Shown in pieces: positions 5,740 through 6,740 of a stretch of DNA of 15,664 nucleotides. How positions within the stretch are numbered: position 1 is the stretch's first letter; each line of letters begins with the position of its first letter. Under the pieces are notes generated by a model, which ran no database searches, was not told the DNA's origin, and saw only the letters and a list, made by a program, of their open reading frames with translations. The DNA comes from an uncultured archaeon (GTDB taxonomy: Archaea > Iainarchaeota > Iainarchaeia > Iainarchaeales > GW2011-AR10): contig CAYIER010000007.1 in assembly GCA_964362395.1 (NCBI GenBank), positions 5,177 through 20,840 on the forward strand, written 5' to 3'. Made by a program: the position numbers and the translations under genes.

Positions 5740-6687
5740 TTATTTCAAATATTTTAAGTATATTTCAAAAAATTTTCTGAAAGTATCCTCGTATTTTTCC
5801 AAAATAAAGCGTTCAAGGTTTTCTGCATAGCCGTTGTCAAAGTCTTCCAGGCACTTGAAATAAGCGATTCTCTGGGTTTTCCTTATTATCAGCGGCGGGT
5901 AGCCTTTATCGACAAGGATAACGTTTATCATGAACCTGCCAACCCTGCCGTTTCCATCCTCAAACGGGTGGATTTTTTCAAGTTTGCCGTGAAATTTTGC
6001 AGCCAGCTGCAGCGGGTGGATTGTTTTTTCGTTTTCTTCAAAATAATGGATTAATTTTTTCATTTCAGCGTCGACTCTTTCAGGCAAAACCGTTTCAACC
6101 GCCCTGCCAATGGCATAGTTTGGGACCTTTTTGTAGCCAGCCGGAATATCCATGTTTTTTACAAGAAGCCTGTGCATTCTCACCATGCCGGCTTCCGTGA
6201 CCCTGAATTTTTTTTGCAGAATTTTGTCGACAACTTTCCTTGAATTGACTGTTTCGTAAATTTCCCGCAGTTCCTTCCCTTTGATGACGTTTTTTTCAAA
6301 CAAAACAATGGCAACGTCTTTTAATGTAAGCGAGTTTCCCTCAATTGCATTTGATTCATAAGTAAAATTTGCAGTAAACCGGTCAAACAAGTCCTTTAGC
6401 TGGTTTTTTGAAAGCTTTTTCAGGATTTTTTTGTAATTTAAGCGGATTTCCTCGATTTTCCTAATTTTGCCTTCAGTGAAAACAGAATCCTTGCGGTACG
6501 CTTTTGCAGCCCAGTCACAGATGATTTTTATTTCCTGACCCTCAAACCAAGTGGCAAATTTTTCCCTTGACTCGCCCTTTTTAACCAGTTTCTGGATAGT
6601 TTTAACCCCACTGCCCGGTAAGCGAATTGATTTGGTCAAATAAAAATATTTTTTGCCAGAGATGCTTTTTTCCTTCAAAAAAACCAT
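5740..6687 (-). CDS. fic: Fic/Doc (Fido) family AMPylase, class II with cis inhibitory helix
   Basis: Complete Fic motif HPFEDGNGRVGR (nt about 5935-5970) matching HxFx(D/E)GNGRxxR. N-terminal inhibitory motif SNAIEGN (nt 6334-6354) matching (S/T)xxxE(G/N). 315 aa. Confidence 0.85.
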   Translation of the reverse strand: MVFLKEKSISGKKYFYLTKSIRLPGSGVKTIQKLVKKGESREKFATWFEGQEIKIICDWAAKAYRKDSVFTEGKIRKIEEIRLNYKKILKKLSKNQLKDLFDRFTANFTYESNAIEGNSLTLKDVAIVLFEKNVIKGKELREIYETVNSRKVVDKILQKKFRVTEAGMVRMHRLLVKNMDIPAGYKKVPNYAIGRAVETVLPERVDAEMKKLIHYFEENEKTIHPLQLAAKFHGKLEKIHPFEDGNGRVGRFMINVILVDKGYPPLIIRKTQRIAYFKCLEDFDNGYAENLERFILEKYEDTFRKFFEIYLKYLK

Positions 6688-6696
6688 ACAAAACTC

Positions 6697-6740
6697 TTAC
6701 CCCTACAAAAATATAAACATATGCAAAAATGTAGGGGTAA
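6697..6740 (-). promoter_or_regulatory. Perfect 11-bp inverted repeat TTACCCCTACA-N22-TGTAGGGGTAA bracketing a TATA-like element (atatgtttatat on minus) about 27 nt upstream of the leaderless fic ATG. Putative operator/promoter.
   Basis: Direct reading: 6697-6707 is the reverse complement of 6730-6740. Spacer 6708-6729 holds aaaaatataaacatatgcaaaaa. The fic ATG is at 6685-6687. Confidence 0.45.

Follow-up and report, generated by a model that had tools for sequence, protein, structure and literature searches.

A conserved inverted repeat around the core promoter of an archaeal class-II fic gene as a candidate operator for Fic autorepression

The fic locus

The DNA analyzed here is a stretch of 15,664 nucleotides from an uncultured archaeon of the DPANN type, referred to as the window. 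It contains a fic gene that is preceded by a leaderless-type promoter lying within an inverted repeat and, further upstream on the same strand, a gene for an AbiEi-like winged-helix protein. The features of the locus are listed in Table 1.

Table 1. Features of the fic locus, with positions in the window and, where marked with a minus sign, distances from the fic ATG.
Feature	Position	Strand	Remarks
fic coding sequence	5740..6687	-	ORF, 315 aa; class-II (cis-inhibited) Fic enzyme
Catalytic Fic motif HPFEDGNGRVGR	5935..5970	-	Residues 240-251, from the translation
Inhibitory-helix motif SNAIEGN	6334..6354	-	Residues 112-118 with Glu116, from the translation
Helices 41-63 and 72-92	6412-6582	-	Together with the β-sheet, a family-specific N-terminal domain
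Codons 1-35, three-stranded antiparallel β-sheet	6583..6687	-	Candidate DNA-binding module
ATG start codon	6685..6687	-	Also the predicted transcription start (putative leaderless mRNA)
Promoter-proximal arm	6697..6707	.	Coding strand TGTAGGGGTAA, -20..-10; between TATA box and predicted start
Spacer with core promoter	6708..6729	-	22 nt, -42..-21; BRE region upstream of the TATA box
TATA box TTTATATT	6710-6717	-	-30..-23, inside the spacer
Promoter-distal arm	6730..6740	.	Coding strand TTACCCCTACA, -53..-43
AbiEi-like winged-helix gene	6878-7462	-	Directly upstream of fic
abiE operator-like repeat	Arms 8144-8157 and 8114-8127		Own TATA box between the arms, leaderless design; conserved in locus L088

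The fic product as a class-II enzyme

The window Fic matches the Pfam family PF02661 (Fic) with an E-value of 8e-18 (65.4 bits, with a cut-off of 24); its match to the NCBIfam model DOC_P1 is weak (E = 0.0027). The catalytic motif HPFEDGNGRVGR agrees with the Fic/Fido signature HxFx(D/E)GNGRxxR, and H240, P241, F242, D244, G245, N246, G247, R248, G250 and R251 are unchanged in an alignment of 119 homologues, as are S112, N113, A114, E116 and G117 of the inhibitory-helix motif. In the AlphaFold model (mean pLDDT 92.9, pTM 0.89), helix 94-115, which precedes the Fic core, ends in the latter motif, and the motif residues S112-N-A-I-E116-G correspond to the class-II signature (S/T)xxxE(G/N). The two motifs, which the first-pass annotation had placed about 140 residues apart, are separated by 128 residues.

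The closest solved relatives by sequence are FICD/HYPE (E = 1e-28) and Clostridioides difficile Fic (CdFic). Foldseek likewise returns FICD (E = 7e-13, TM 0.67), BT_2513 (target TM 0.75) and CdFic (target TM 0.83) as top matches, so that the core fold of the model resembles that of the solved class-II members, with TM values of about 0.65-0.85. A class-I arrangement, in which the inhibitory helix is provided by a separate antitoxin, does not fit the locus, as none of the genes beside fic, antitoxin-like or other, is conserved across the 20 archaeal loci described below. The alignment of SNAIEGN with TVAIEGN (E234) of human FICD, the predicted fold and this lack of a conserved antitoxin-like neighbor bear out the first-pass assignment of the product as a stand-alone class-II Fic, with predicted gating by its own inhibitory glutamate.

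An inverted repeat around the core promoter

On the forward strand, TTACCCCTACA occupies 6697-6707 and TGTAGGGGTAA 6730-6740, and direct reading, a repeat finder and a script agree on both. The 11-bp arms are 100% complementary and cannot be extended at either end, which confirms the perfect repeat with a TATA box in its 22-nt spacer that had been noticed at first reading. This TATA box was then taken to be the only such element, but a weak second match (one mismatch) is present at 6833-6840, in the intergenic region about 146 nt from the ATG.

The BRE and TATA elements of fic span about -37 to -23, and the coding strand reads GAGTTTTGT between the proximal arm and the ATG. The center of the TATA box is located about 26.5 nt before the A of the ATG, in line with the spacing of archaeal leaderless promoters, where this center lies about 26-27 nt before the start codon. 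A TATA box starting at about -30 implies a leaderless fic mRNA. This fits the leaderless start proposed in the first-pass annotation. Csl4, another gene of the window, shows an identical spacing, and over the 20 loci the mean start of the TATA box is -29.4 ± 0.9 nt from the ATG. The inner ends of the half sites are 21-22 bp apart and their centers about 32-33 bp. This corresponds to roughly three helical turns and places both half sites on the same face of the DNA.

Without comparison to other loci, the repeat could be due to chance. Two perfect 11-bp inverted repeats with a spacer of at most 40 nt occur in the window, the other one at 10205/10239, where 0.57 are expected, and 34% of Markov shuffles contain at least one. 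That the palindrome arose by chance in an intergenic region rich in A+T is nevertheless a negligible prospect, since this is refuted by the conservation of the repeat, with co-varying arms, in all 20 loci.

Conservation of the repeat across archaeal fic loci

A search of metagenome contigs with the single window protein gave three loci, of which one is from a replicate sample of this organism and the other two are truncated. Among the matches listed from a profile scan of genome contigs were the distant loci L002-L005, L010, L019, L041 and L054 as well as bacterial comparators. The comparison set consists of 20 distinct archaeal fic loci, with 2-8 kb around each gene. The proteins are 27-70% identical to the window Fic, the genes range from 24 to 59% GC, the neighbors are unrelated and the hosts belong to several DPANN phyla. 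Within this set, fic is the sole conserved gene of the module. Its contexts are many and unrelated, frequently among toxin-antitoxin and defense genes.

All 20 loci have arms of 10-15 nt around the TATA box, which reads TTTAAATA or TTTATATA in the orthologues and occupies the same place. The dyad axis is centered on -30.4 ± 1.9, and 4-12 nt separate the end of the proximal arm from the ATG. The orthologues all begin with MV(F/Y) at an equal distance from the TATA box. The median inverted-repeat score is 10.25 for fic and 5.0 for a control of 73 upstream regions of other ORFs, drawn from 17 of the 20 loci (Mann-Whitney p = 1e-10). Absence of the palindrome upstream of orthologous genes had been named beforehand as the observation that would speak against an operator; instead, it is found at every orthologue examined, with the TATA box in the spacer and at a fixed distance from the ATG. 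That this layout has stayed with fic through at least 20 unrelated contexts argues for a real regulatory site.

The sequence of the arms varies by clade, with both sides altered together. At arm positions 4-11, two to four Watson-Crick pair types occur and complementarity is found in 13-17 of 17 loci, dropping to 3-6 of 17 at positions 12-14. Positions 2-3 (..CA/TG..) are unchanged, and 15 of the 17 loci have a complementary pair at position 1. The arm TTACCCCTACA itself is retained in fic genes of 29%, 39% and 59% GC. The arms track the fic gene and not the host. Since the divergence of both arms and protein follows phylogeny, the fact that they change together does not by itself prove that one recognizes the other directly.

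Five distant loci have the arms twice, the additional copy being located at the 3′ end of fic with unchanged spacing and no TATA box, which indicates that the arms and their spacing form a unit in their own right. The close orthologues of the window gene have the upstream copy only. The palindrome pattern was also searched in viral contigs, where none of the 44 matches lies beside a fic gene or contains a TATA box. All are of the common type of hairpins with G+C stems or terminators, and 17 of them represent one near-identical phage element.

Operator, nucleic-acid structure or mobility site

The fic palindrome is very probably an operator, i.e., a protein-binding site under selection. Two other functions of the repeat can be weighed against this reading. 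Firstly, arms that remain complementary through two-sided changes are also expected from a nucleic-acid structure, either an RNA hairpin in read-through transcripts, acting as a terminator or shielding fic against transcription from upstream, or a DNA cruciform. The predicted RNA fold has an energy of -18.9 kcal/mol (z = -3.6), and the 3′ copies in some distant loci could end or stabilize the mRNA. In the 5′ copy, however, the loop invariably consists of the core promoter, whose distance from the ATG is fixed, and this copy is therefore probably not transcribed. Moreover, the innermost two or three positions are fixed in sequence and not just paired, the proximal arm of two loci (L085 and L088) differs at 2 nt without compensation, which leaves adjacent mismatches in the middle of the stem, and the mismatches do not follow a strand-consistent G-U pattern. 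The conserved T-run expected behind the stem of a terminator is absent in many orthologues, and a loop of 17-24 nt is unfavorable for a cruciform. Lastly, tRNA and Rfam scans of the window gave nothing in the fic region, with no Rfam match within 5740-6877. A structural role is thus improbable.

Secondly, the palindrome could be a recombination site or cassette boundary mobilizing fic. The many unrelated contexts, often with toxin-antitoxin or defense genes, would fit such a role, as would the observation that the similarity between loci starts at the distal arm and the presence of two flanking copies in the five distant loci. On the other hand, a conserved recombinase is not found nearby, and close orthologues manage with a single copy. 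The flanking copies were considered as terminal inverted repeats and rejected because of their inconsistent relative orientation, which is inverted in L010 and L041 and direct in L004 and L005. The conservation of the TATA box and of the ATG distance is that of a promoter, and a spacer of 20-24 nt is unlike the geometry of Xer/dif sites, which is 11-6-11. Mobilization is therefore given slightly less weight still than a structural role.

Candidate regulators

If the repeat is an operator, the question is which protein binds it. The first-pass annotation named the AbiEi-like protein and Fic itself as candidates, and of these Fic is favored, whereas the AbiEi-like protein does not hold up. Its gene lies directly upstream of fic in the same orientation, and binding to inverted promoter repeats is established for AbiEi proteins (PMC7319586); the match of this particular protein to Pfam AbiEi_4 is marginal (26.7 bits). 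However, an abiEii-abiEi pair adjoins fic in only 2 of the 20 loci, in one of which (L088) it is positioned downstream and convergent. The abiE pair moreover possesses a separate operator-like repeat that encloses the abiE TATA box and has arms unrelated to those of fic. This distinction between the arms of fic and those of abiE is kept in two different hosts, those of the window and of L088, and the fic arm is absent upstream of abiEii. Regulation of fic by the AbiEi-like protein is accordingly very improbable.

A more serious candidate, still regarded as unlikely, is a trans-acting regulator that is encoded elsewhere and is neither Fic nor AbiEi. It gains from the fact that the N-terminal domain of Fic has no known DNA-binding fold, and from the scope of the comparison, as a distant regulator or further copies of its regulon would fall outside the 2-8 kb inspected per locus. 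It is countered by the way in which the arms stay with fic across hosts of several DPANN phyla and widely different GC content, by the different arms of fic and abiE within one host, and by the lack of a second conserved gene near fic. Further copies of the fic arm are not present in the 15.7-kb window, and in the available flanks of the loci the only copies are those flanking fic.

Fic itself is, by a modest preference based on these comparisons, the probable binder of the operator. Its extra domain is N-terminal and β-rich, with a net charge of +8 over residues 1-40 and with K, R, Y and S as conserved residues. A significant structural or Pfam neighbor of this domain was not found. A helix-turn-helix (HTH) is not detected by Pfam in the window Fic either, and its C-terminus (270-311) is modeled as two terminal helices following the Fic motif. 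The N-terminal domain is present in every Fic that has the repeat, as detected by an HMM of residues 1-40 or, for L041, by the aligned N-terminus. Three archaeal fic genes that lack the domain (L028, L071 and L072) also lack the TATA-straddling layout. Comparison by eye over the 20 loci gave no clear simple correspondence between residues of the domain and bases of the arms.

A profile search with the N-terminal domain against 1.84 billion representatives yielded 76 clusters, nearly all of them Fic or truncated Fic. The exceptions are P0177 and P0180, which have a K/E-rich tail, and P0161, in which the domain is fused to half a PD-(D/E)xK nuclease. The latter fusion may be a rearrangement, and the evidence that the domain is portable beyond Fic is weak.

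A model for autorepression of fic

In the favored reading, a Fic dimer would bind both half sites through its basic N-terminal β-sheet domain, which would read sites that flank the BRE and TATA elements at a distance of three helical turns from each other. The bound dimer would sandwich the binding site of TBP and TFB and cover -20 to -10, thereby blocking recruitment of RNA polymerase. Occlusion of TBP/TFB binding had been suggested as the mechanism at first. As the arms flank the BRE and TATA elements and do not cover them, and the proximal arm is situated downstream of the TATA box, ahead of the start, a block of TFB or RNA polymerase recruitment appears at least as likely as occlusion of TBP. 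Such negative autoregulation would keep a potentially toxic AMP-transferase low and buffered, in addition to the glutamate gate on catalysis. In some lineages, the site at the 3′ end might be read by the N-terminal domain as well, which could lead to looping or to a roadblock. Taken one step further, and more tentatively than the identity of the binder, a widespread family of Fic enzymes in DPANN archaea could consist of bifunctional enzyme-repressors with a new β-sheet DNA-binding module, each forming a horizontally mobile, self-buffering unit of one gene.

Significance

Because Fic enzymes can be toxic, their activity has to be restrained in the cell. The catalytic restraint by the inhibitory glutamate is well studied. 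To our knowledge, nothing has been described on the role of Fic in DPANN archaea, and the autorepression model, if true, would provide a handle on it. Transcriptional self-control of a Fic protein has been demonstrated experimentally for one bacterial protein, CccR (PMC9755527). The archaeal family described here carries a built-in, co-evolving candidate operator around a leaderless TATA promoter and has no separate regulator gene. It would be the first case of transcriptional self-control by a Fic protein in archaea. Should Fic prove to be the binder, a new DNA-binding domain would be defined, and archaeal promoters could be equipped with a small, transferable pair of repressor and operator, with the arm variants as a ready specificity series. 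Besides, the design shared by fic and abiE suggests a general wiring rule for mobile toxin-like modules in these organisms.

Comparison with known systems

Palindromic sites in core promoters are known from several archaeal regulators. MDR1, Lrs14, Phr and members of the TrmB family sterically block the recruitment of TBP/TFB or of RNA polymerase from such sites. In these compact sites, the half sites follow each other at about one turn, and the proteins that bind them are dedicated HTH or winged-helix factors. At fic, in contrast, the half sites have a spacing of about three turns and bracket the whole BRE/TATA region, and the gene encodes an enzyme and has no separate regulator.

Among Fido proteins, FICD/HYPE, C. 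difficile Fic and BT_2513 resemble the window Fic in combining the core and an inhibitory helix N-terminal of the active site in one chain. Instead of the basic β-sheet domain of the window Fic, FICD carries TPR repeats and a membrane anchor. We know of no promoter operator described for these three proteins. In the Phd/Doc system, a Fido-fold toxin gene is under a palindromic operator in its own promoter. There, the separate antitoxin Phd binds the DNA with Doc as co-repressor, and Doc is a kinase without the class-II inhibitory helix.

The AbiEi/AbiEii type IV toxin-antitoxin system is similar to fic in having a repeat in its own promoter, and the abiE pair of the window even shares the leaderless, repeat-TATA-repeat layout. 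In the AbiE system, the winged-helix antitoxin represses its own promoter via paired inverted repeats; this involves two genes, and antitoxin monomers bind 23-bp repeats that are 3-13 bp apart (PMC7319586). The fic module differs in being a single gene with 11-bp arms about 22 bp apart and in the sequence of these arms.

The closest parallel is CccR from Yersinia pseudotuberculosis (PDB 7XUX), a Fic-domain AMP-transferase with an HTH that represses its own promoter as a dimer (PMC9755527). Its operator, AGATAATCAT-N26-ATGATAATCT, consists of two 10-bp inverted repeats with an unusually long 26-bp spacer that overlaps the core promoter (PMC9755527). The structure 7XUX is a detectable relative of the window Fic, both by sequence (E = 5e-8) and by Foldseek (E = 4e-7). 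Both genes have a widely spaced inverted repeat over their own core promoter, arranged as 10-N26-10 for CccR and as 11-N22-11 for fic. CccR is a bacterial type VI secretion system (T6SS) effector that uses a C-terminal HTH for DNA binding at a -35/-10 promoter, whereas the window Fic has an N-terminal β-sheet domain in place of an HTH, a leaderless BRE/TATA promoter, and DNA binding that is predicted. The class-II fic genes of CPR bacteria included for comparison encode a C-terminal HTH_17-like domain and have a 16-nt repeat in their own promoter. In the favored reading, the archaeal fic gene represents a new archaeal variation on the known theme of self-repressing Fic proteins.

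The Fic protein and its gene neighborhood

The description of the fic product as a stand-alone class II enzyme in the first-pass annotation agrees with motifs, alignment and fold. The protein matches the Pfam Fic family (E = 8e-18), and residues 94-303 align with human FICD (E = 1e-28), as well as with C. difficile Fic and BT_2513. SNAIEGN lies opposite TVAIEGN of FICD, which is the motif with the inhibitory Glu234. A structure search with the confident AlphaFold model (pLDDT 92.9, pTM 0.89) retrieved FICD, C. difficile Fic and BT_2513, all class II, as the nearest solved folds. 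The family comprises 1,471 matches, the best 120 of which are 55-70% identical and nearly all 312-325 aa long; both the catalytic motif and SNAIEGN are invariant in 119 homologs. Because of the FICD alignment, the inhibitory motif, the fold and this invariance, the protein is assigned, as judged from sequence and a predicted structure, to the stand-alone class II Fics on all testable features. Catalysis and glutamate gating are presumed. The distance between SNAIEGN (residue 112) and the catalytic motif (residue 240), previously put at about 140 residues, is 128.

The window encodes the primase subunit PriL, two PCNA paralogs, an RpoL-like subunit, exosome Csl4 and archaeal Lon, and the nearest Fic relatives are found in MAGs annotated as Diapherotrites/Iainarchaeota, Micrarchaeota and Altiarchaeota. 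Since both are archaeal, an archaeal promoter (BRE/TATA) is the right frame for the upstream region. The Fic protein was matched on a 27.5-kb contig from Hainich groundwater. The G+C content of the fic/abiE segment is 0.39-0.41, vs. 0.46 in the remaining window. This segment lies, together with rpiB, between the two PCNA genes (4296-5132 and 8195-9046, both minus), which are approximately 3 kb apart, and looks like an insertion amid housekeeping replication genes. The rpiB gene is convergent with fic and the two stop codons are 3 nt apart (5736-5740), leaving no space for a terminator or a 3′ palindrome copy in this genome.

Coordinates of genes and repeat elements in the window and in related loci
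Feature	Position	Strand	Remark
PCNA	8195-9046	minus	first in minus-strand order, upstream of abiEii
abiE outer arm TGAATCGCCCAAAC	8157-8144	minus	upstream of abiEii
abiE spacer, 16 nt, with TTTTTATA	between arms	minus	
abiE inner arm GTTTGGTTGATTCA	8127-8114	minus	7 nt before leaderless-type ATG at 8106
AbiEii (toxin)	7459-8106	minus	ATG at 8106
AbiEi_4-like protein	6878-7462	minus	Pfam AbiEi_4, 26.7 bits vs. cut-off 25
Gap between AbiEi_4-like gene and fic			190 nt
fic distal arm TGTAGGGGTAA	6730-6740		-53..-43 on coding strand
fic TATA-like octamer TTTATATT			-30..-23 on coding strand, inside 22-nt spacer
fic proximal arm TTACCCCTACA	6697-6707		-20..-10 on coding strand, 9 nt from ATG
fic	5740-6687	minus	last in minus-strand order
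Second copy at fic stop	L004 1474-1517; L005 4888-4929; L010 4790-4833; L041 4678-4718; L054 4681-4720		
Toxin-antitoxin/defense neighbors	L140 163-643; L088 958-1362 and 5747-6951; L092 2115-2679		
CPR-bacterial Fic repeat	L015 3930-3992; L011 and L009 equivalent positions		ends 3-10 nt before ATG; Fic 314-321 aa

A conserved repeat bracketing the TATA box

All elements named in the first-pass annotation were recovered in place by reading the sequence, with a repeat finder and with a script. The fic arms pair perfectly over 11 bp, are extendable at neither end and are separated by 22 nt. Two short-spacer inverted repeats with perfect 11-bp arms occur in the window vs. 0.57 expected, and one third of Markov-shuffled sequences (34%) have at least one, so the window palindrome on its own is weak evidence. 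A search allowing two mismatches revealed no further meaningful arm copy in the window. The only other perfect 11-bp repeat (ACACTTTGGCA/TGCCAAAGTGT, 10205-10215 / 10239-10249, 23-nt spacer) has no TATA box in its spacer. It lies just past the Csl4 stop codon (10266), ahead of a G+C-rich hairpin (GCCCCGCCTTCAGGCGGGAC region) and the RpoL-like promoter, and may be a 3′-end or terminator-like element. For the RpoL-like ORF (9833-10216, minus), the TTG given as start is likely too far upstream; the TATA box TTTATATA at 10130-10137, a GGTGA and the ATG at 10108 point to Met37 (MEIETISEDK...) as the true start.

The presence of the palindrome upstream of fic orthologs, on which the annotation had made its reading depend, was examined in 20 distinct archaeal fic loci, i.e., DNA around orthologs and distant archaeal loci from a contig scan. 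The layout is common to all 20: an arm ending in ACA, a spacer, an arm starting with TGT, 4-12 nt and the ATG. The spacer measures 20-24 nt (15 in one locus) and has the TATA box in its proximal half (TTTAAATA, TTTATATA and similar), with TATA starting at -29.4 ± 0.9; the dyad axis is at -30.4 ± 1.9. Neighboring genes differ from locus to locus (DUF3160, LAGLIDADG protein, PD-(D/E)xK nuclease, bestrophin, ParDE, PIN, ABC transporter and others), and similarity between loci starts at the distal arm. The median repeat score is 10.25 at fic vs. 5.0 at 73 other ORF upstream regions drawn from 17 of the loci (Mann-Whitney, p = 1e-10). The arms vary by clade (TTACCCCTACA, TTCCCCCACA, TAACTCCACA, TTAACCCCACA, TTATACCTACA, TTAGTACAACA, TTGTCCACA, GGTGACTACA, TTATAACCAC, TTAACATTAC), the changes being identical on both arms in nearly every case. 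Counted from the inner end, the arms pair at position 1 in 15 of 17 loci, positions 2-3 are unvarying, and positions 4-11 show two to four Watson-Crick pair types and are complementary in 13-17 of 17 loci; past position 11, complementarity collapses. The arms persist in hosts whose fic genes range from 24% to 59% G+C. Given the conserved layout, the co-varying arms and this persistence, the alignments argue that the 11-bp-arm, fixed-geometry element is under strong purifying selection.

The fic module is often near toxin-antitoxin or defense genes (RHH-ParE, PemK, PIN, an MmeI-type restriction-modification gene, IS66 transposase), a context consistent with mobile or defense islands. The arm sequence ACCCCTACA...TGTAGGGGT also occurs in 44 viral contigs (IMG/VR, L096-L139), all as ordinary hairpins, 17 of them one near-identical element (GAAGAACCCCTACACAG-GAAAGGTGG-CTGTGTAGGGGTTCTTC); none of the 44 has a relation to fic.

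Second copies of the repeat

Five distant Woese-/Nanoarchaeota-type loci (L004, L005, L010, L041 and, weaker, L054) carry a second copy of their locus-specific arms exactly at the fic stop codon, with the 20-24 nt spacing of the first copy and a spacer that is not TATA-like. L019 has two tandem copies upstream (3915-3951, 3954-3990), while the window and its close orthologs have the upstream copy only. As the second copies keep arms and spacing without a TATA box, they show these to be a putatively functional unit by themselves. Because the gene that follows fic in L004 and L041 is convergent, the copy in these loci is not a promoter. The copies at the stop codon would also suit two minor alternatives, a 3′ RNA hairpin or a cassette-boundary or recombination site; for the latter, however, the two copies are not consistently oriented to each other, and no recombinase lies near fic. 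The 3′ copy fits an auxiliary operator, acting by looping or as a roadblock to antisense transcription.

The abiE operon

The AbiEi-like neighbor, proposed earlier as regulator of the fic palindrome, is excluded as a general fic regulator: of the 20 loci, only two (the window and L088) have the abiEii-abiEi pair near fic, in L088 downstream of and convergent with it, and the pair has a separate operator-like element of its own. This element has the same repeat-TATA-repeat design with different arm sequences, complementary at 12 of 14 positions. In L088, the orthologous operon has kept this element (about 5303-5346) with proteins that are only 56-60% identical. Since fic and abiE keep their own arms in two different hosts, specificity follows the module and not the host. 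Bacterial AbiEi is a winged-helix antitoxin that binds its own abiE promoter region (PMC7319586); by analogy, the winged-helix antitoxin would be the obvious binder of the abiE element. In the window, the toxin gene abiEii comes first and overlaps the AbiEi_4-like gene by 4 nt; compared with the canonical abiEi-abiEii order the genes are reversed, as they are in L088.

The N-terminal domain and the candidate regulator

All repeat-bearing Fics have an additional N-terminal domain, made up of a three-stranded β-sheet (residues 2-35) followed by a pair of long helices (41-63, 72-92). Residues 1-40 have a net charge of +8, and K7, Y14, Y16, S20 and R22 are conserved in the family. In 140 fetched sequences, matches to an HMM of residues 1-40 are confined to fic ORFs, and include all repeat-bearing loci then fetched but L041, the N-terminus of which closely resembles that of L054, itself a weak match (E = 0.14). 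Three archaeal Fic genes without this domain (L028, L071, L072) also lack the TATA-straddling layout. The domain is a candidate DNA-binding domain, so far unclassified. The Nitrosotenuis gene among these three (L072) has a different, compact palindrome, TATCCGATA-N8-TATCGGATA, directly 5′ of the start codon, approximately 30 nt upstream of the ATG. Outside Fic, the β-sheet module occurs in the proteins P0177 and P0180, joined in each to a long K/E-rich tail, and in P0161, where it precedes or follows only the C-terminal half of a PD-(D/E)xK/Cas4-like nuclease in a fusion that may have arisen by rearrangement.

Autoregulation by Fic, the other option of the first-pass annotation, is favored because Fic is the only module-encoded protein, and all repeat-bearing Fics carry the N-terminal domain; by analogy with known systems, Fic rather than AbiEi is the likely regulator. 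The fic promoter has a TATA box of the predicted leaderless type, and its conserved, co-varying half sites lie on either side of BRE/TATA, separated by about three helical turns. A Fic dimer could occupy both half sites via its N-terminal domains. The proximal (-20..-10) and distal (-53..-43) sites would then clamp the assembly region of TBP/TFB and RNA polymerase, resulting in negative feedback on fic.

Comparison with known and probable self-repressing Fic proteins

Direct experimental precedent comes from Yersinia, whose Fic enzyme CccR carries a C-terminal HTH and, as a dimer, represses its own promoter by binding two 10-bp inverted repeats with 26 bp between them (PMC9755527). Sequence and structure searches recovered the CccR structure (7XUX) as a relative of the window protein. 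The CPR-bacterial class II Fic genes retrieved in the contig scan encode a C-terminal HTH_17-like segment that falls short of the Pfam threshold (E = 2e-4), and their promoters contain a 16-17-nt repeat (TTCTTAATATGGTATA ... TAAACCATATTAAGAA, 15-nt spacer) over a TATAAT/TATACT-like box; they are probably another self-repressing Fic family. CccR, the CPR-bacterial Fics and the window family would each be a version of one apparently recurrent design, in which a Fic enzyme has a DNA-binding domain attached and its promoter contains a widely spaced repeat. The window module would, by analogy, be the archaeal form of the self-repressing design known from CccR, from which it differs in having an unclassified N-terminal candidate DNA-binding domain instead of a C-terminal HTH, and an operator that brackets the TATA box.
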